Below are positions 5,764 through 60,499 of a DNA stretch of 64,000 bases, in pieces (the stretch's first letter is position 1; every line of letters begins with the position of its first letter). Position numbers and translations under genes: made by a program. Source of the stretch: a virus; the IMG/VR virus record IMGVR_UViG_3300025466_000015; one strand, 5' to 3'. The notes under the pieces are model-generated. The model was given only the letters and a program-made list of their open reading frames with translations. It was not told where the DNA came from and ran no database searches.

Positions 5764-5771
5764 TATAAATA
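5764..5771 (+). promoter_or_regulatory. T4-type late promoter
   Basis: Exact TATAAATA, intergenic, about 45 nt upstream of the ATG at 5816. Confidence 0.8.
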
Positions 5772-5815
5772 AACCTACGGACAACCATAGTGTGTTGTAT
5801 TTCTAGGGAAAATCA

Positions 5816-7027
5816 ATGAAAACTTTTATATCGTTTCTGACTGAAGAAGCTGCTGATGAAGGCGGCCAGCTCAAACACATTCACCATGCTGAAGATAGAC
5901 CTTTAATGCACGGTCATGCTGGTTTTGAACATGCTTATGGTGCTTTACAACAAGCACACGAACATATTAAGGCTGGCCACAAAAGTAGTAATTTAACAAT
6001 GAAATATGATGGTTCTCCATCAATTGTCTTTGGTCACCATCCACATACTGGTAAATTCTTTGTTGCTTCCAAATCTGCTTTCAATAAGAATCCAAAGATT
6101 AACTACTCTGAAAAAGATATTCAGAAGAATCATGGCCATGCTCCAGGCTTAGTAAAAACTCTTAAACATGCACTCAAACACCTACCAAAAGTAACACCTA
6201 AAACTGGTGTTTATCAAGGTGATGTGATGCATCATGCAGAAACTAAGACATTAAAAGAAGAACATTTGTTTGAAGCTGCAAAAAATAAAGTATCTTTTAC
6301 ACCAAATACCATCACCTATACTGCACACGGTGATGAAGCTAAGAAAATTAACAAATCTAAGATTGGTGTCGTAGTTCACCAAAAATATAGTGATGACATG
6401 AAACATGCTTCACCTCATGTTGACCACCATAACTTTAAAGAACATCCAGATGTCCATATTCATGGTGCTGAACATGATACAAGTAAGGTTCAACACAGTC
6501 CGGAGAATGAACATGAGTTTCATAAACACATGGCTGCAGCTAAAGAGATACACGACACACATGGCCACAAAATGTATGATGCCGTTCATCATGCTCATGG
6601 TGGAGAATCCGGTCATCTATCCACTTACATTAATCATACAGTAAGACACGATCAGGTTCCAAGTGTTAAAGGATTCCAAGCACACCTTTATAGCCAACAT
6701 GAAAAAATGGCATCCAAAGTAAAATCGGATAAATCTAAGAATGAAAAACGTACTGAAGGTGAACACCAGATTAAACATGTGGAAAAAAATAAATCTGCAT
6801 ATGGCCATTTGTTCTCTATGCATCACCATTTACACCAAGCCAAGAATTCTTTGGTGAAATCATTGGAAACGCATGAGGGTAAATATGAACACCATATTGA
6901 AGGTAAGAAATCTAAACCAGAAGGTTTTGTGGTAAACCATAAACCAGAAGGCGGTAAAGAAGAACCAACAAAATTGGTAAATAGAGCTGAATTCGCTAAG
7001 GCCAATCTTTTAAAAGTTAGAAAATGA
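5816..7027 (+). CDS. His-rich ligase-fold nucleotidyltransferase-like protein (DUF6267-like) with putative capsid-targeting leader
   Basis: Ligase-like motifs KYDG, YQGD, EGFVV and KLV; leader MKTFISFLTE; about 55 His in 403 aa. Confidence 0.65.
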   Translation: MKTFISFLTEEAADEGGQLKHIHHAEDRPLMHGHAGFEHAYGALQQAHEHIKAGHKSSNLTMKYDGSPSIVFGHHPHTGKFFVASKSAFNKNPKINYSEKDIQKNHGHAPGLVKTLKHALKHLPKVTPKTGVYQGDVMHHAETKTLKEEHLFEAAKNKVSFTPNTITYTAHGDEAKKINKSKIGVVVHQKYSDDMKHASPHVDHHNFKEHPDVHIHGAEHDTSKVQHSPENEHEFHKHMAAAKEIHDTHGHKMYDAVHHAHGGESGHLSTYINHTVRHDQVPSVKGFQAHLYSQHEKMASKVKSDKSKNEKRTEGEHQIKHVEKNKSAYGHLFSMHHHLHQAKNSLVKSLETHEGKYEHHIEGKKSKPEGFVVNHKPEGGKEEPTKLVNRAEFAKANLLKVRK

Positions 7028-9162
7028 AGTCGTTTTTAGATATAGTTCAAGAAGCCAAAAGTGATGAGGTGCATCATGTGATGACCTTTGGCCGGATGAA
7101 TCCGCCTACAACTGGCCACTTGAAGTTGATTGATAAAGTTAAAGATGTGGCTAAAAAGAATAATGCTGGTCACACAGTTGTCACATCACATTCACAAGAT
7201 GCAAAGAAGAATCCATTATCGGCAGCTCAGAAGATTAAACACCTAAAAAGATATTCTCCAGGTACTCACTTTGAAGCTTCCAACAAAGAACATCCAACAT
7301 TCTTACATCACGCAGCCAAAATCCACAAGAAAGGCGTAACTCACCTTCACATGGTGGTTGGTTCTGACCGTGTTAAAGAAATGAGAGAGAAGTTGCACAG
7401 ATATAATGGTACACATGAAGGTGCCTTGTATAACTTCAAAAAGATTACAGTTCACTCAGCTGGTGAAAGAGATCCTGATGCTGAAGGTGATACTGGTATG
7501 TCTGGTACCAAGATGAGAGAACATGCCAAGAATAAAGATATGAAATCTTTTAGACAAGGCGTTCCACATCATGTTTCTGATGAACATGCAAAAGAATTGA
7601 TGCATGATACTCGTAAAGGTATGGGTTTACATGAAGATATTTACCGTGGCGTATTCAAGGCCATCTTTGTAACTGGTGGACCTGGTTCTGGTAAAGATAT
7701 TGTTATTCGTGAAGCTATTGCTGAGGCCAGAGCTGTTGAATTAAACTCCGTACAAGCATTTGAATACTTGGCCGATAAACAAAAGTTATCCGAAAGAACT
7801 AATGATTTCCGTAGAGAAGCCATTAGAACAAGGTCACCATTGATTATTAATGGACCTGCTGATGATGCTCAACGTATTGTTTATGTTAAAGAAGAATTAG
7901 AAGATTTAGGTTATGAAACCATGATGGTTTTTGTTAACACAACTGATGAGGTGAGTAAAGAGAGAAACGAAAAACTTAAAAGGACAATTGGTGAATCTGT
8001 ACGTCACGATAAATGGATTCAGTCACAAAACCTTAAAGAATCATACTCTCAGAACTTTACCACTTTTATGAACTTTGATAATGATGGTTCCTATGAACAG
8101 ATAGAGGAAGACATTACTGACACATATCAAAGCATAAATCGCTTTTTTGACAAATCTCCATATAATGATGTTGCATTTTCATGGTTAGAAAATCGTGGAA
8201 AGTTAAATACTGGTGTTAACTCTAATCTTTTTAAGGAAGAAAAAAATGTTTCAAAAAATTCTAAATCTATTCAAACTAAAACCGCTGCCAAATACAACCC
8301 AGCCTATCGAGCAGCCGGCCCAAGTGACATCCCCCCAGATAACGACAAGTCCGGTGGCGGAAACCCGGACGATGTTAAATTCAACGCCGTCAAACGTACA
8401 GGTACCTATACCTTCAGAACTTACTCCGAGTCCCGTGACTCCGGCTCCTTCAATTCAGGTAACGACAACAGAAGTTACGGCACAGCCCCAACCCTCCAAG
8501 CGGGGAAGAAAGCCAAAGAATCAAGGTTCCAACAAGACAACGACAAAACGAAAAGGTTAAAAAGAGGTGATACTTCTTTAAAAGCCACTAGAGTTGGTAG
8601 GCCTGACGGTGTTGGGTCTACAATTAATACTAGAGGTTATGATGGTTTAACTGGTGGTGCAGGCCTTGGTGACGCTACATACAGAGAAGAAACGAAACCA
8701 AAATTAATCAAAAAAGATAGACTAGGTCCAGAATATTCTACAAGTAACAGACCAACTGGTGATACCGCAGGTCCAAGACCAAGTAATAACTTTGTTGGTG
8801 AAAAACGTAAGTTTAAGAGTACTGTCATTAAAGAGTTTAATGGATTCCAAAATGATGTGGAGTCTGGTGTTGGTGGTACGTTAGGTGGTTCTGGTAACAT
8901 GGAGAAAATGGACTCCTATAAAGACCAAATGCGTAACATCGGTACTGAAGTCAAAGTTAAGAAGAAGAAAAAATTAAAAGAGAATCATGTAAGAGAACTT
9001 GAAAAAGGTTTACAACAATTGAACAGTCACGATTATGACACAATTCATAATCTAATGATGAAAGTATCTAAAGACCATGGCGTAACTGGTAAACAACTTC
9101 ATAATGATTTCAAATCTGAACATGGTAAAACACCTGATAACTGGATTAAGGAAAAGAAATGA
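7024..9162 (+). CDS. HxGH nucleotidyltransferase fused to a P-loop kinase-like domain and a low-complexity tail
   Basis: FGRMNPPTTGH, VVGSDR, MSGTKMR, then AIFVTGGPGSGKD; leader MKSFLDIVQE. Confidence 0.8.
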   Translation: MKSFLDIVQEAKSDEVHHVMTFGRMNPPTTGHLKLIDKVKDVAKKNNAGHTVVTSHSQDAKKNPLSAAQKIKHLKRYSPGTHFEASNKEHPTFLHHAAKIHKKGVTHLHMVVGSDRVKEMREKLHRYNGTHEGALYNFKKITVHSAGERDPDAEGDTGMSGTKMREHAKNKDMKSFRQGVPHHVSDEHAKELMHDTRKGMGLHEDIYRGVFKAIFVTGGPGSGKDIVIREAIAEARAVELNSVQAFEYLADKQKLSERTNDFRREAIRTRSPLIINGPADDAQRIVYVKEELEDLGYETMMVFVNTTDEVSKERNEKLKRTIGESVRHDKWIQSQNLKESYSQNFTTFMNFDNDGSYEQIEEDITDTYQSINRFFDKSPYNDVAFSWLENRGKLNTGVNSNLFKEEKNVSKNSKSIQTKTAAKYNPAYRAAGPSDIPPDNDKSGGGNPDDVKFNAVKRTGTYTFRTYSESRDSGSFNSGNDNRSYGTAPTLQAGKKAKESRFQQDNDKTKRLKRGDTSLKATRVGRPDGVGSTINTRGYDGLTGGAGLGDATYREETKPKLIKKDRLGPEYSTSNRPTGDTAGPRPSNNFVGEKRKFKSTVIKEFNGFQNDVESGVGGTLGGSGNMEKMDSYKDQMRNIGTEVKVKKKKKLKENHVRELEKGLQQLNSHDYDTIHNLMMKVSKDHGVTGKQLHNDFKSEHGKTPDNWIKEKK
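8246..8560 (+). CDS. Candidate overprinted +1-frame gene (104 aa, Pro/Thr-rich, basic tail)
   Basis: AAGGA RBS before the ATG; host-frame codons shift to C-ending over this interval; MFQKILNLFK...KRGRKPK. Confidence 0.5.
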   Translation: MFQKILNLFKLKPLPNTTQPIEQPAQVTSPQITTSPVAETRTMLNSTPSNVQVPIPSELTPSPVTPAPSIQVTTTEVTAQPQPSKRGRKPKNQGSNKTTTKRKG

Positions 9163-9869
9163 TATCATTCAAAGAATTCATTACTGAAAAGTGTTGGACT
9201 GGATATAAAAGAGTTCCAGGTACAAAAGCATATTCTCCCGGTTCTTGTGAAAAAGAAGAAGTTGAAAAACCAACAGGCAAACTAAAAGATGCTTGTTGGA
9301 CGGGTTATACGGCTGTTGGAACAAAAAAGAAAGATGGTAGAACAGTTCCTAATTGTGTACCAGAAGAAGTTGAAATGGAAGCTTACCATGATCCTTGGAA
9401 AGACAAATATTTTGGTCCAGGAGAAGTAGTCAAACAAAAATATAGAGTTAAGACAGATGACAAAACATATAATGTTAGAGCTGATACCGAAAAACATGCA
9501 CACGAATTGGTAACTAAACATGCTCCTGACTCCACAATTATTTCTATTCAACATAAAGGTTCCGCAAGATGGTCGGAACAAGTTGAAATAGACGAAACTG
9601 CAGCTTGGCAAAGAAAAGCTGGAAAAGATCCAAAAGGTGGCTTAAATAGAAAAGGTATTGCTTCTTATCGTAGAGAGCATCCAGGTTCTAAACTAAGTAT
9701 GGCTGTAACAACAAAGCCATCTAAGTTAAAAAAGGGTAGTAAAGCGGCTAATCGTAGAAAATCATTTTGTGCTAGAATGTCTGGCATGAAAAGAAGACTA
9801 ACATCAGCTAAGACTGCAAGAGATCCAAATTCTAGGATCAATAAGTCATTGAGAAAATGGAATTGCTAA
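9159..9869 (+). CDS. Basic modular protein (DUF6321-like C-terminus), putative internal head protein
   Basis: Leader MISFKEFITE; CWTGY twice; GGLNRKG...RRKSFCARM...SLRKWNC. Confidence 0.65.
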   Translation: MISFKEFITEKCWTGYKRVPGTKAYSPGSCEKEEVEKPTGKLKDACWTGYTAVGTKKKDGRTVPNCVPEEVEMEAYHDPWKDKYFGPGEVVKQKYRVKTDDKTYNVRADTEKHAHELVTKHAPDSTIISIQHKGSARWSEQVEIDETAAWQRKAGKDPKGGLNRKGIASYRREHPGSKLSMAVTTKPSKLKKGSKAANRRKSFCARMSGMKRRLTSAKTARDPNSRINKSLRKWNC

Positions 9870-32748: not shown

Positions 32749-33501
32749 TTAGGCTGCTAACTTGACCAAAATGGTCGGGTATTTCACAAAGCCGGTAGTG
32801 TCTTTTTTGGCCTTGCCTTTAGCGTACAAACCAACAACCACACCTTTGGGGTCTAGGAAGCGGAGGTCGCTTTCATCACCATTAAACACTGGCAAACCCA
32901 TATAAGTGGATGGCATTGGTTCGGTTTTCTTAATACCGAACACCGTAGCAATATTATAACCAGAAGCGATGGCCTTGGCCACGTCCGCCTCATTACCATC
33001 AGCATTGCTAAAGGTCAATTGGTAATTGGTGATACCAGCAACCTTACGGCCAAGCACCTTGGTGTAATCATAGAATTGGACATTGGGGAAGCGAGCGAAA
33101 ATGTTTTGGTAGAATACGCCGTTATCGGTAAAACCATACTTTTCCCATGATAGGTCGCTAGTACCATTCAAGCGGATGGCGGGAATGAGACCAGCTTTAG
33201 CGGATTGCTTGATGGCCAAATTAATATCAGCAACCAACCACTCCATAAAACCATCTCGCTCTTCAAAAAAGAAGCTTGTTTTACGGATTCTAGCTTGTTG
33301 GATGACATTGGTGGTCTCGCCTTTTTTAAACATACCACCACGTCCAGCTAAATTCAAGCAAGCAACCGTGCAACCAGCAGTCCGCTTAGGACAAACCTCA
33401 TGGCCTGAAAGGTCAGCTGGTGCCAAATGTAAAATATATGTCATATAGCCTTGAGCCATACCTTTGAGGGTCTTTGGATTGCCTGTGGATAGTAATTTCA
33501 T
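32749..33501 (-). CDS. GP88-family protein
   Basis: LHLAPA, CPKRTAGCTVACL, RLNGTSDLSWE, QFYDYTK, GDESDLRFLD, GLYAKG. Confidence 0.75.
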   Translation of the reverse strand: MKLLSTGNPKTLKGMAQGYMTYILHLAPADLSGHEVCPKRTAGCTVACLNLAGRGGMFKKGETTNVIQQARIRKTSFFFEERDGFMEWLVADINLAIKQSAKAGLIPAIRLNGTSDLSWEKYGFTDNGVFYQNIFARFPNVQFYDYTKVLGRKVAGITNYQLTFSNADGNEADVAKAIASGYNIATVFGIKKTEPMPSTYMGLPVFNGDESDLRFLDPKGVVVGLYAKGKAKKDTTGFVKYPTILVKLAA

Positions 33502-44029: not shown

Positions 44030-44401
44030 ATGATTGAATTATACCGTGGAATTTTAGATAAGTACACATCTAATATCCGTAAAATGGAAGATGATTTCAA
44101 GGATTTAGTTAGAGAATCCTATGCGTCTGATCCAGCCAACACAATGCATGGTGCTTCAGGATTTTGGAATTTCCTATTGGAAATTACCTTGACATTATTC
44201 GTCAAATCGTTTATAATCCTATCTGTATTGTTAACTGTGGCATTGGCAATTCTATTCTTTCCGTTAAATGCTGTATTGAATGCTTTCATGTATGTGATGC
44301 CTAGATTTGACAATAGATTTGTTGAAGAACCTGTTAAACAAGAACCAAAGATTGATGTACCTGTGGCAATAATTAGCCAAACCGACAAGGATAAAAAATG
44401 A
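44030..44401 (+). CDS. Membrane protein
   Basis: AAGGAG RBS; long hydrophobic stretch. Confidence 0.55.
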   Translation: MIELYRGILDKYTSNIRKMEDDFKDLVRESYASDPANTMHGASGFWNFLLEITLTLFVKSFIILSVLLTVALAILFFPLNAVLNAFMYVMPRFDNRFVEEPVKQEPKIDVPVAIISQTDKDKK

Positions 44402-55408: not shown

Positions 55409-55540
55409 GAAGATTAAGAAACTAATAATGAAATTAAATCGTGCTGAGTTTGAACATAAACTCGACAAGGTGAAAAAGTTATGGTTTAAAATTCTAAAGA
55501 AATCTATGAAGCATAAGCACACAGAGGCCGTTAGATGATT

Positions 55541-55864
55541 ATGGTTGTATGAAGTAAATCAAAAAGTATTCTGGACGGGGGTGCGAATCCCCCCACCTCC
55601 ACCAAAGATATATTGCACCAATAACGCCACGGGGTTATCTAAGGACTGCAGCCTGAAAAGTACATAGTGAGAAGTACAGATAACAGCAATGTATCTTTGA
55701 TGGGGGTGCATAGTTTCGACAGGGTAACAAGTAGAGGCATGGACAACTCATCACAGAGAGATGTAAAAAGTAAATCAAAGTAACCGCAAACGACTCACGT
55801 TTCGCATTGGCTGCCTAAACGCAGACTAGGGTTCGGTGGATTCCTCGTAACAGAATATCCACCA
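55541..55864 (+). ncRNA. ssrA: Circularly permuted (two-piece) tmRNA; outer boundaries approximate
   Basis: T arm and CACCTCC-ACCA (ends 55604) precede the GGGGGTG strand (55702), giving a G3:U70 pair; tag ANDSRFALAA* at 55786-55818; intervening segment closed by a stem. Confidence 0.88.
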
Positions 55865-55889
55865 TTAATTTTAATAACAAGGAGTTTGA

Positions 55890-57835: not shown

Positions 57836-58057
57836 ATGCCAACCAAAACCGAAATAACAGAATTCAGCCTCTTGATTGAAAATATATCATATGAGGAGAA
57901 TCTGTCTTATATTGATTCTATTGTATACCATTGTGAACAAACTGGTATGGAGATAGAAATCGCCTCCACTCTATTAACTTCAATTCTTAAGGCTAAAATT
58001 CGAGAAGAAGCTGAAGAAGTTAATTTATTAAAGAAAACATCAAAGTTACCTATATGA
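57836..58057 (+). CDS. 33: Late transcription coactivator (gp33-like)
   Basis: FSLLIE...SYIDSIVYHCE...LKAKIREEAEEVNLL...KLP. Confidence 0.8.
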   Translation: MPTKTEITEFSLLIENISYEENLSYIDSIVYHCEQTGMEIEIASTLLTSILKAKIREEAEEVNLLKKTSKLPI

Positions 58058-59322
58058 AACCTTTAAGATTTGCTTTTATTGGATCAGGTACTGCTAGTGT
58101 TATCAGTATTTGTGCCTTATATCAAAATATCAAAGAAATAACTCAACAGGAAAAATGTTTAATACCTTTTGAAGTTTTTTGTATACATGATCCAGATATA
58201 AAAACTTTTCCTGTTGGTGAAGCTTTTGGTCCCGGACAAAGGCAAGTTATGGAAATCGTGTTAGGTTATGACTTAGAAAAAGGTGTCGATTTAGACGAAA
58301 CGAACAGAAAAGGATCTAAATCATATTGGGAAAAAAATGGCGGGAATAATTTTGAGATTTGGTATCCTGCCGAAGGTATGCATGTTAATGCTGCCAAATT
58401 ATCTCCTTGGTGTTTAAAAAAATTATCACTCAAAGAAAATTTCAAAGAAATACACGATAATATAATTGAAATAAAACAGTCCAATCATGAAGTGACATTG
58501 ATTGGAAAAAATAGTGAGTATTCTGGATTTGATTTTGTTTTTGATTGCACCGGATCACCATCAGAAAAAGAATTAAATCCGTCAAAATATAATTTGCCTA
58601 AATTTGAATTTGTTAATACAGCACTTTTATATCAAGACTTTAAAAAATATGATGAACCGTATTCGAGCAGTTATGTTCATGAAAATGGATGGATGTTTGG
58701 CATACCATTAAAACACAGAAAGACTTACGGTTATTGTTACAATAAAAATATGACAAGTTATGATGATGCGTTGAATAATTTTCAAGACACTTTAAAAAAT
58801 TATGTGAATATTGAAAATATAAATGTTGATGAAATTAAAAAATTGTCGTGGAAACAATACTACAAAAAAGATTTAGCGGACAATAGAGTATTAACTTTAG
58901 GCAATAAACTTTATTTGTTTGATCCTCATATGGGTCTTGCTGCTCATTTTTTCATGGTAGTCGTTAGGAAATTCACAAATAATTTTTTAAAACATCATTT
59001 ATTTGATAATTTGCCTTTTGAGAACATGATAAACTCTTTGAATACTTGGTACAGAATTAGTATAAAAGAAATTGAAGCTTTGATTGCATTAAATTATGCC
59101 ACACCAAATAAAATTGATAATCATTATTGGAATGAAATTAGCCCTAAGGCACAAAATATATTGAAAGAGTGTATAACTTTGCAGAAGTGGTTTGCTGATT
59201 GTGAAATGGGAGAAAAGGATCAATTTAATTTTCATGCGGATCGACTGATGTTTTTATATTTAAATGGTTATAACGTCAAATTAAAAGATATTTTTTATGA
59301 AAAAAATTGCAATAATCGGTAG
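58054..59322 (+). CDS. Flavin-dependent halogenase-like protein (divergent)
   Basis: IGSGTA, PVGE, FDCTG, GWMFGIPL. Confidence 0.7.
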   Translation: MKPLRFAFIGSGTASVISICALYQNIKEITQQEKCLIPFEVFCIHDPDIKTFPVGEAFGPGQRQVMEIVLGYDLEKGVDLDETNRKGSKSYWEKNGGNNFEIWYPAEGMHVNAAKLSPWCLKKLSLKENFKEIHDNIIEIKQSNHEVTLIGKNSEYSGFDFVFDCTGSPSEKELNPSKYNLPKFEFVNTALLYQDFKKYDEPYSSSYVHENGWMFGIPLKHRKTYGYCYNKNMTSYDDALNNFQDTLKNYVNIENINVDEIKKLSWKQYYKKDLADNRVLTLGNKLYLFDPHMGLAAHFFMVVVRKFTNNFLKHHLFDNLPFENMINSLNTWYRISIKEIEALIALNYATPNKIDNHYWNEISPKAQNILKECITLQKWFADCEMGEKDQFNFHADRLMFLYLNGYNVKLKDIFYEKNCNNR

Positions 59323-60499
59323 AGGGACAGCAGGCGTTCTTTCAACCGCACACTTTTCTAGGTATTGTGGCGATTGTGAAATTGAATTATATTATGATTC
59401 AAATATAAAACCTCAACCTGTAGGTGAAGGTTCAAATTTAACTTTAAGTAAATATTTGTTTGATATACTAGACTTCAAACATTCAGAATTACCTCTGATT
59501 GATGGAACATTCAAGACAGGAGTAAAAAAAATTGGTTGGGGTGAAGGAAAAGATTTTGAACACGAGGCAACTCCGCCTCACATAACATACCATTTCAATG
59601 CTGCAGCTTTGCAAGAATACATATTAAATAAATTGAAAGATAAAATTACAATTTATGATAAAAATGTTTCGTCTGATGACATTGATTCAGATTATGTTAT
59701 GGATTGTTCTGGTACACCTAAAAATTTAGATGAATTTATTATACCAGAATTTATTACAGTGAATTCAGTATATGTCACGCAATGTTATTGGGATTATCCC
59801 AGATTCTTACACACACTTAATATCACTAGACCATATGGTTGGGTTTTTGGTATACCTCTGAAGAATAGGTGTGCTATAGGTTATGTTTATAACAACAATA
59901 TTAACACATTACAAGAGGTGCAAGAAGATGTTAAAAATATTTTTGATGAATATAACTTAATACCTAGTGATAAAAATATTGCATTCAGTTTCAAAAGTTA
60001 TTATAGGAAAAATAATTTTCAAGGTAGAGTTGTTTATAATGGCAATTCATCATTTTTTCTTGAACCATTAGAGGCAACTGCTATATCTGTTATTGAAAAT
60101 ATTAATCGATATTCTTATGATATATGGTTTGATAACAATTCTATCGTACAAAAAAATAATGACTATAAACATACTTTGCAAAGAATTGAATCAATGATTT
60201 TGATGCACTATTATTCAGGTTCACCATATAAAACTGCTTTTTGGCATTTTGCTCAGGATCGAGGCCGTAAGTGTATAGAAAATTCTTTGGAAAAACATCA
60301 AGAATTAAAATTGTTAATTGAAAAACCATATTCTGATATTGATCCGAATCTTTTCACTAAAGATAGGATAAAAGGTTATGGACCTGGTTATGGACTTTGG
60401 GGTATACACGGTATGCACCTAAATTTTAATAAACTTGGACTCTACGATAAACTCAAAAGAGATTTTAACTTAAACCCTTTAAACTTGGGATATGAATAA
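59297..60499 (+). CDS. Tryptophan-halogenase-like flavoprotein
   Basis: IIGRGTAG, VGEGS, GTFKTG, MDCSG, GWVFGIPL, FLEPLEAT. Confidence 0.8.
   Translation: MKKIAIIGRGTAGVLSTAHFSRYCGDCEIELYYDSNIKPQPVGEGSNLTLSKYLFDILDFKHSELPLIDGTFKTGVKKIGWGEGKDFEHEATPPHITYHFNAAALQEYILNKLKDKITIYDKNVSSDDIDSDYVMDCSGTPKNLDEFIIPEFITVNSVYVTQCYWDYPRFLHTLNITRPYGWVFGIPLKNRCAIGYVYNNNINTLQEVQEDVKNIFDEYNLIPSDKNIAFSFKSYYRKNNFQGRVVYNGNSSFFLEPLEATAISVIENINRYSYDIWFDNNSIVQKNNDYKHTLQRIESMILMHYYSGSPYKTAFWHFAQDRGRKCIENSLEKHQELKLLIEKPYSDIDPNLFTKDRIKGYGPGYGLWGIHGMHLNFNKLGLYDKLKRDFNLNPLNLGYE

Follow-up and report, generated by a model that had tools for sequence, protein, structure and literature searches.

A candidate gene overprinted in the +1 frame on the predicted disordered linker of a phage cytidylyltransferase-kinase gene

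In phage lambda, the o-spanin gene Rz1 lies wholly inside the i-spanin gene Rz, in the +1 register and with a Shine-Dalgarno (SD) sequence and a start codon of its own. Its product, a small proline-rich protein, carries a signal peptide and a lipobox Cys, is secreted as a lipoprotein, and works in lysis together with the product of the gene that contains it. Overprinted accessory genes of small viruses, including E and K of phiX174 and many genes of RNA viruses, have been reviewed (PMC8227390, PMC6195259). Embedded out-of-frame genes are therefore a known kind, yet long out-of-frame overlaps are forbidden by gene finders, and as a consequence such genes go unseen. Here, we describe a further candidate, located in a stretch of viral DNA of 64,000 nucleotides (IMG/VR record IMGVR_UViG_3300025466_000015; this whole stretch is called the window). 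It is an open reading frame (ORF) in the +1 frame of a gene for a cytidylyltransferase-kinase, referred to as the host gene. Based on comparisons with homologous loci, we give a probability of roughly 80% to the reading that this ORF truly encodes a protein and is overprinted on the predicted disordered linker of the host enzyme. To the known cases it adds an unusually clear comparative signature: the signal is unusually clean, with dozens of diverged lineages keeping the frame and several independent losses serving as internal controls.

The codon usage of the host gene changes abruptly over the ORF (coordinates of the features are given in Table 1). In sliding windows of 30 codons, the proportion of host codons with C at the third position (C3) was 0.07-0.17 before position 8239, 0.50-0.53 at 8284-8464, and 0.07-0.20 from approximately 8510. 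When 60-codon windows were used, the peak (0.55) was the top value of 2428 windows in 57 ORFs across the 64 kb (mean 0.14, standard deviation (sd) 0.06). G+C content in the region climbs from 0.30 to 0.56, and the GC skew becomes negative (-0.21 to -0.28). The original prediction, which was made from the sequence alone, had described a switch of the host frame to C-ending codons with a reversion after 8560. The switch was borne out by the sliding-window analysis as a spike of third-position C over the ORF, the highest in the window; the reversion was placed too late, since baseline values were already reached by ~8510-8550, before the end of the ORF. The second-highest C3 of the window (0.35-0.43 in 60-codon windows) was found elsewhere, at 33111-33246 on the minus strand, within the ORF at 32749-33501, a Pfam GP88 gene.

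In order to place the ORF among its relatives, viral contigs were scanned for homologous loci; 592 candidate loci were seen in this scanning, and two scans yielded 86 loci, 71 of which cover the region. At the homologous place, the +1 frame was open over 77-124 codons in 60 of the 71 loci, at host identities of 42-93%, while the +2 frame of the ORF-bearing loci carried 3-14 stops. All 60 ORFs begin with ATG, an SD core precedes 56 of them, and the spacing is 8 nt in 42, a conservation of start signals to be read with the caveat that SD and ATG fall within a semi-conserved host motif, KE(E)xNV. According to the original prediction, homologs with frequent +1 stops, or without the ATG or the ribosome binding site, would have spoken against a gene; as the above counts indicate, conservation of start, ribosome binding site and open frame was instead the rule among these loci. 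The codon signature followed the frame. Region C3 of the host frame was 0.31-0.47 in ORF-bearing loci vs. 0.08-0.21 elsewhere in the same gene, whereas in the 11 loci without the ORF, which have 2-6 stops in the +1 frame, it was not above that of the rest of the gene (0.06-0.18; 0.23 vs. 0.19 in locus L077). The exceptions had thus lost the C-ending bias along with the frame. One of them, L036, uses A/T-ending codons for a host segment closely similar to that of the ORF-bearing locus L022; since the two host proteins are alike and their codons differ, the host protein does not need the C-ending codons.

In a quick maximum-likelihood tree of the N-terminal 400 amino acids (aa) of the host protein, the 11 ORF-less loci did not group together but branched from within ORF-bearing clades at four or more separate points. 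This pattern fits an old gene that has been lost several times, at least about four, a count that is approximate because the tree is a quick one with a midpoint root. The openness of the frame was compared with a null in which the host protein was kept fixed and synonymous codons were redrawn from the rest of the host gene. Such resampling predicts ~0.5-5 stops in the +1 frame per lineage, and the combined probability (Fisher) was 5e-13 over 14 deep lineages and 7e-21 when 31 lineages were taken. These values are too small because of shared ancestry, although the signal is still not marginal.

The direction of the codon shift points to selection on a second protein, not on RNA. At four-fold degenerate host codons within the ORF core, the frequency of T fell from 0.456 to 0.168 and that of C rose from 0.138 to 0.424, while A was unchanged (0.336 vs. 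0.361, p = 0.15) and G went slightly down. Host position 3 is position 2 of the +1 frame, where a T-to-C change makes xCx codons (Pro, Thr, Ser, Ala) out of xTx codons (Leu, Ile, Val, Phe, Met); the hydrophilic xAx codons of the +1 frame are left as they are. A shift from T to C only is predicted by avoidance of hydrophobic +1 codons, that is, by a soluble unfolded polypeptide, and it argues against a generic demand for C-rich RNA or DNA, which would also replace A. The explanation of the codon switch put forward in the original prediction, selection for a second frame rich in Pro, Thr and Ser, is backed by this result. C-ending host codons prevail over the ORF because selection keeps the frame open and swaps T for C at +1 position 2; it acts mainly on the character of the polypeptide, with would-be hydrophobic residues becoming Pro, Thr, Ser or Ala. 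In most lineages, selection thus preserves the open frame, its start signals and a hydrophilic composition. The region is in this respect like proven overlapping genes of viruses, for which an enrichment in C, Pro and Ser has been reported (PMC6195259). The same comparison of T and A at four-fold codons could be reused to separate dual coding from compositional RNA signals.

Constraint was also detected at synonymous sites, as the original prediction had proposed to check. The host-synonymous rate in the overlap was 0.63 of that in the flanks (confidence interval (CI) 0.54-0.75, 21 sister pairs); it was lower in the overlap in 9 of 9 ORF-bearing clusters and higher in two of the three clusters without the ORF. 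At a finer scale, the +1 motif [KR]HPLD was present in eight distinct lineages belonging to both deep clades. Its codons vary at +1 third positions, and the same changes alter the host residues, (A/T)(S/P)(T/S)(G/R).

These observations bear on the alternative that what is selected is a C-rich nucleic acid (a Rho-utilization-like or protein-binding RNA, or a DNA signal), the open +1 frame being a by-product. We consider it improbable. A single cause could yield both signals, as C at host position 3 bars +1 stops; the GC skew is negative exactly over the region; the region varies in length and sequence, as a compositional signal would; and the measured constraint is at the nucleotide level, without singling out the +1 frame. 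However, T alone gives way to C at four-fold codons, with A untouched and G near its usual level, and the 5' edge of the region is marked by an SD at fixed spacing and an ATG in 56-60 of 60 loci. Moreover, where the C-rich part ends, the ORF runs on without a stop through ~60 nt of an A-rich tail, and HPLD is retained through changes that are synonymous in the +1 frame. The RNA fold of the region was no more stable than that of shuffled sequences (z +0.42), and no overlapping Rfam family was found in it.

Several results weigh against a protein-coding role of the ORF or limit what the above evidence can be taken to show. The +1 frame of the window itself was open in 37% of the synonymous resamples (mean 0.81 stops; p = 0.37); an open frame being unremarkable in a single genome, the evidence must come from the relatives. 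An OLGenie-like dNN/dNS for the +1 frame, expressed as overlap over flank, was 0.92 (CI 0.81-1.04) and thus not significant, with 0.80 for the +2 control. The +1 translations of different lineages were more alike than under the synonymous-resample null (z 17-31; excess 0.083 vs. 0.017 in the flanks), but the excess conservation of the +2 frame was nearly that of the +1 frame (0.071), hence this measure reflects nucleotide constraint, not frame. Since C at host position 3 rules out a +1 stop, openness and C3 have to be counted as a single line of evidence. Conserved host motifs underlie three parts of the product (N-terminal motif, TPSEPT motif, basic tail), and the ORF-less loci keep a +1 stub of 10-20 codons beginning MKKL or MKVL, in which the N-terminal likeness partly survives. 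Finally, the function proposed below derives only from composition and from an AlphaFold2 (AF2) model of low confidence (predicted local distance difference test (pLDDT) 66). The frequency of open frames among resamples of the window and the non-significant +1 ratio would suit a non-functional accident, brought about by the amino acid content of the host linker, which rarely gives rise to +1 stops, and a local quirk of codon usage. Such an accident is hardly credible, as it leaves unexplained a 3- to 4-fold excess of C3 confined to this stretch in ~60 diverged lineages, the vanishing of that excess in precisely those 11 lineages whose +1 frame is interrupted, a combined p as low as 5e-13, the synonymous constraint and the T-specific replacement. 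Taken as a whole, selection on composition and on an open frame is well supported by the comparison of sequences, whereas selection on particular residues is indicated only locally, by the HPLD motif and the shift from T to C.

The predicted structure of the host protein is compatible with a gene overprinted at this position. A cytidylyltransferase-like domain was recognized at aa 21-120 (Pfam PF01467, E 1.4e-5) and a P-loop kinase at aa 212-320, with an invariant GGPGSGKD and an AAA_33 match below the model cut-off; more than 180 homologues of the protein were found. In the AF2 model, based on 21 homologues, folded enzyme domains extend to ~aa 390, residues 391-652 have pLDDT values below 50, and a helical domain occupies aa 653-712, so that aa 391-652 are predicted to form a long disordered linker. 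The embedded ORF overlaps aa 408-513, within this linker, which if disordered would be where a second frame is most easily accommodated, in support of overprinting.

The start signals are those noticed in the original prediction, an AAGGA ribosome binding site and an ATG; the two lie 8 nt apart, and the initiation region at 8246 is similar to real gene starts of the window, at 44030, 12630 and 9159. Translation would most likely proceed by independent internal initiation at this SD and ATG. A different route, in which the +1 frame is no gene of its own but, through +1 ribosomal frameshifting or slippage of transcription on the A-run before 8246, supplies the enzyme with another C-terminus and so fuses it to a basic tail, seems very improbable: a run of 6-7 A does lie directly upstream of the ATG in the window and in about one quarter of the homologues, and the +1 frame is open for 13 codons 5' of the ATG, but most lineages are without the A-run (e.g. 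aaggaaaatgaaaATG), the open stretch upstream is short and variable (0-35 codons), no conserved slippery motif was seen, and the features conserved are the SD at 8-nt spacing and the ATG.

Regarding transcription of the overprinted gene, the late-like TTAAATA reported by the original prediction near 8203 is present, but it differs from the T4-type late promoter consensus TATAAATA and is not supported as a promoter; it was found upstream of the ORF in 19 of the 60 ORF-bearing homologues. A TATAAATA box within 80 nt upstream of the embedded ORF was found in none of the 60 homologous loci. A separately transcribed T4-type late gene was accordingly rejected, the nearest exact TATAAATA of the window being the one ahead of the 5816 gene, with none shortly upstream of the ORF. 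This box is the likely start of an mRNA comprising both the host gene and the embedded gene, which would probably be expressed from that shared late transcript. With regard to the motif itself, the two copies of TATAAATA in the AT-rich 64 kb compare with 6.3 expected from shuffles (sd 2.5), a shortfall that is not significant alone but would be expected if the motif were avoided except at real late promoters.

Table 1. Positions of the embedded ORF, its predicted parts and the surrounding signals in the 64,000-nt window.
Feature	Position	Strand	Remarks
Host gene, cytidylyltransferase-kinase	7024..9162	+	712 aa; from the ORF list
Candidate embedded +1-frame gene	8246..8560	+	104 codons + TAA; inside host gene 7024-9162
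Shine-Dalgarno AAGGA of embedded gene	8233..8237	+	8 nt before ATG; host codons Lys-Glu
TTAAATA	8203..8209	+	Host codons Lys-Leu-Asn-Thr; promoter role not supported
Exact T4-type late promoter box TATAAATA	5764..5771	+	Ahead of 5816 gene; one of two exact copies in 64 kb
N-terminal leader MFQKILNLFKLKP	8246..8284	+	Predicted short cationic, moderately amphipathic helix
Predicted disordered core rich in Pro, Thr, Ser and Gln	8285..8482	+	Coincides with host C3 spike; AF2 coil
Polycationic tail	8483..8557	+	Net +9 in last 25 residues; overlaps host motif KExxFxxDxDKxK

The product is predicted to be an intrinsically disordered and strongly basic protein of ~80-124 aa, consisting of an N-terminal helix, a hydrophilic spacer of Pro, Thr, Ser and Gln, and a tail rich in Lys, Thr, Ser and Pro. 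That of the window has 104 aa, a pI of 10.8 and a net charge of +9. Across the family (56 distinct proteins), length ranges from 77 to 124 aa and pI from 9.8 to 11.7, the most represented residues being Lys (15%), Thr (14%), Pro (12%), Ser (12%) and Gln (8%). Cys and aromatic residues are nearly absent, with no Cys at all in 51 of the 56 proteins. Charge is unevenly distributed, with ~+3 in the first 13 residues, a value around zero or negative in the mid-part, and +6 to +11 in the last 25. The AF2 model of the product (43 sequences; mean pLDDT 66) showed a helix at residues 2-8 and coil elsewhere.

The leader follows the family motif M-[LF]-[KQ]-[KRA]-[IL]-x-x-[LF]-[LF]-K-x-K-P. As the same nucleotides encode a conserved motif of the host protein, NV(K/S)KNSKSIQxKT, conservation of the leader is not creditable to the +1 frame alone. 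The amphipathic segment MFQKILNLFK of the original prediction corresponds to a short N-terminal helix in the model, although its amphipathicity is only moderate (hydrophobic moment 0.43 in the window, family mean 0.56, shuffles 0.36). The P/T-rich linker and the basic end were likewise recovered, as a coil rich in Pro, Thr, Ser and Gln and a basic C-terminal end. In the core, the motif TPSEPT (PSELTPS in the window) was found in 38 of the 56 proteins, overlapping host YTFRTYSE; the tail reads KRGRKPK...KTTTKRKG in the window and mostly SKS..K..TS.KTKKK in the family.

Searches with the embedded family gave no Pfam match for any of 43 members, and a search of a language-model atlas retrieved only unnamed viral clusters, with no functional lead. 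The leader was not found to be shared with other proteins of the 64-kb window. A profile search of 1.84 billion representative proteins resulted in 17 matches; the two that were examined were both embedded in the host gene, one on a scaffold in which a run of N interrupts the host gene and the other on a short, probably chimeric contig of 1x coverage that truncates it, and they had been called as genes only because the host gene was unreadable there. When a second copy of the ORF was sought on five contigs without it, only an interrupted match was obtained, at the same place in L036, and this match may be host-imposed. No published description of the embedded gene was found in a full-text literature search. 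As no stand-alone relatives were found, the gene was probably born de novo in place, inside the host gene; its birth would precede the split of the sampled phage lineages, and it would since have been lost at least ~4 times.

Other observations concern the host protein. Its C-terminal helical domain (8980-9159, aa 653-712) is missing from 7 of the 21 homologues in the alignment, and coverage of the C-terminal host query by most homologues in the database is only ~79%. Among cultured phages, the closest ones, T4-like myophages that infect Pelagibacter and Methylophilales, match only the first 204-388 host residues, and none of the cultured isolates in the phage collection carries the overlap region. 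The last ~55 host residues alone match cyanophage proteins, over short stretches of these; some of the proteins are annotated as tail fibre. Within the linker, homologues of aa 455-500 showed two unrelated versions (e.g. L041 vs. L017), a KKRGSYTFRTYSE-type and a PRKDPNGRGHSGGAWSG-type, which sometimes differ between otherwise near-identical proteins (P0011, P0012). Each of the two types occurs with and without the embedded ORF. An origin of one version from the other by a frame switch was discarded, given that cross-frame alignment scores were at background level.

The host gene is the second of three consecutive genes that follow the late box TATAAATA on the plus strand (5764-9869); the first encodes a DUF6267 protein, in which a ligase-type motif (KYDG) is present, and the third a DUF6321 protein. 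The products of the three genes begin MKTFISFLTE, MKSFLDIVQE and MISFKEFITE, respectively. The capsid-targeting leader of T4 is MKTYQEFIAE, and on sequence the leaders of the three genes, that of the host enzyme included, resemble it. The module may represent a set of injected enzymes, and the embedded protein may act with it. In other parts of the window, a phage-encoded transfer-messenger RNA (tmRNA) was detected at 55492-55877 on the plus strand (Rfam beta_tmRNA, 115.8 bits; tmRNA_permuted, 122.6 bits), with the tag peptide ANDSRFALAA according to ARAGORN; its betaproteobacterial type hints at the host group of the phage and, taken with the closest cultured phages, suggests hosts of the Methylophilales or Pelagibacter type. 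Two adjoining genes at 58054-60499 (plus strand) matched the PHROG tryptophan halogenase family (E 1.5e-41 and 1e-64), an unusual auxiliary function for a phage.

As to what the embedded protein might do, we tentatively propose, at somewhat less than even odds, a nucleic acid-binding role for the basic tail, with phage or host DNA as its probable target, and docking to a partner through the N-terminal helix. Alternative guesses would be that the protein binds membranes or works with the host enzyme or the capsid core; the membrane-DNA tether suggested by the original prediction is likewise a guess, and is not supported. A more specific idea, which we regard as unlikely, is that of a polycation similar to the tail of histone H1 that coats or condenses DNA, made late together with the capsid-targeted enzymes and perhaps packaged with the genome and injected, as a lasting component of a widespread clade of aquatic T4-like phages. 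If true, phages would have a new class of DNA-associated proteins, and the locus would be one of the rare examples in which the birth of a gene by overprinting is dated in a large dsDNA virus. In any case, as the ORF lies among late genes for enzymes that are apparently targeted to the capsid, its product is a candidate for a role at the very start of infection, and the locus may serve as a model for the birth of a protein inside an old gene, for two disordered polypeptides that share one sequence, and for the hidden coding capacity of large phages.

Among the known systems, lambda Rz1 shares with the present case a dsDNA phage context, a fully embedded +1 gene with its own SD and start, and a small proline-rich product. 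Unlike Rz1, the embedded product has no signal peptide, lacks Cys in 51 of 56 proteins and carries a charged N-terminal helix of 10 residues; the gene that contains it encodes a cytidylyltransferase-kinase, whereas for Rz/Rz1 a functional link between the two products is known. An embedded o-spanin of the Rz1 type was consequently rejected, as neither signal peptide nor lipobox Cys is present and the host gene does not encode an i-spanin.

The C-terminal part invites comparison with tails of the AT-hook and SPKK types (HMGA, C-terminal tail of histone H1), which are likewise cationic, disordered and rich in Lys, Arg, Ser, Thr and Pro; KRGRKPK in the window and TSPKTKKK-like strings in many relatives are further points of similarity. 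KRGRKPK, which the original prediction had called AT-hook-like, is, however, limited to close relatives of the window, with RGR in 7 and the GRP core in none of the 56 proteins and no Pfam match, and an AT-hook as a family feature was discarded, since its R-G-R-P core is not conserved. In addition, the host motif KExxFxxDxDKxK, with its A-rich codons, imposes part of the basic character on this tail. T4 internal proteins IPI-III, which carry a capsid-targeting sequence, resemble the embedded protein in being small and basic, and the context is also similar, with MK(S/T)F...E leaders in the host gene and both its neighbours after a late promoter; the embedded leader MFQKILNLFK differs in having no (L/I)xE cleavage site.

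With the overprinted genes of small viruses, finally, the candidate gene shares an apparent de novo origin, orphan status, a product predicted to be disordered, and enrichment in C, Pro and Ser. Unlike them, it is found in the large genome of a T4-like myophage, where space is not limiting, and it lies in the predicted disordered linker of an enzyme, where it appears to be old (host identity down to ~42%) and to have been repeatedly lost.

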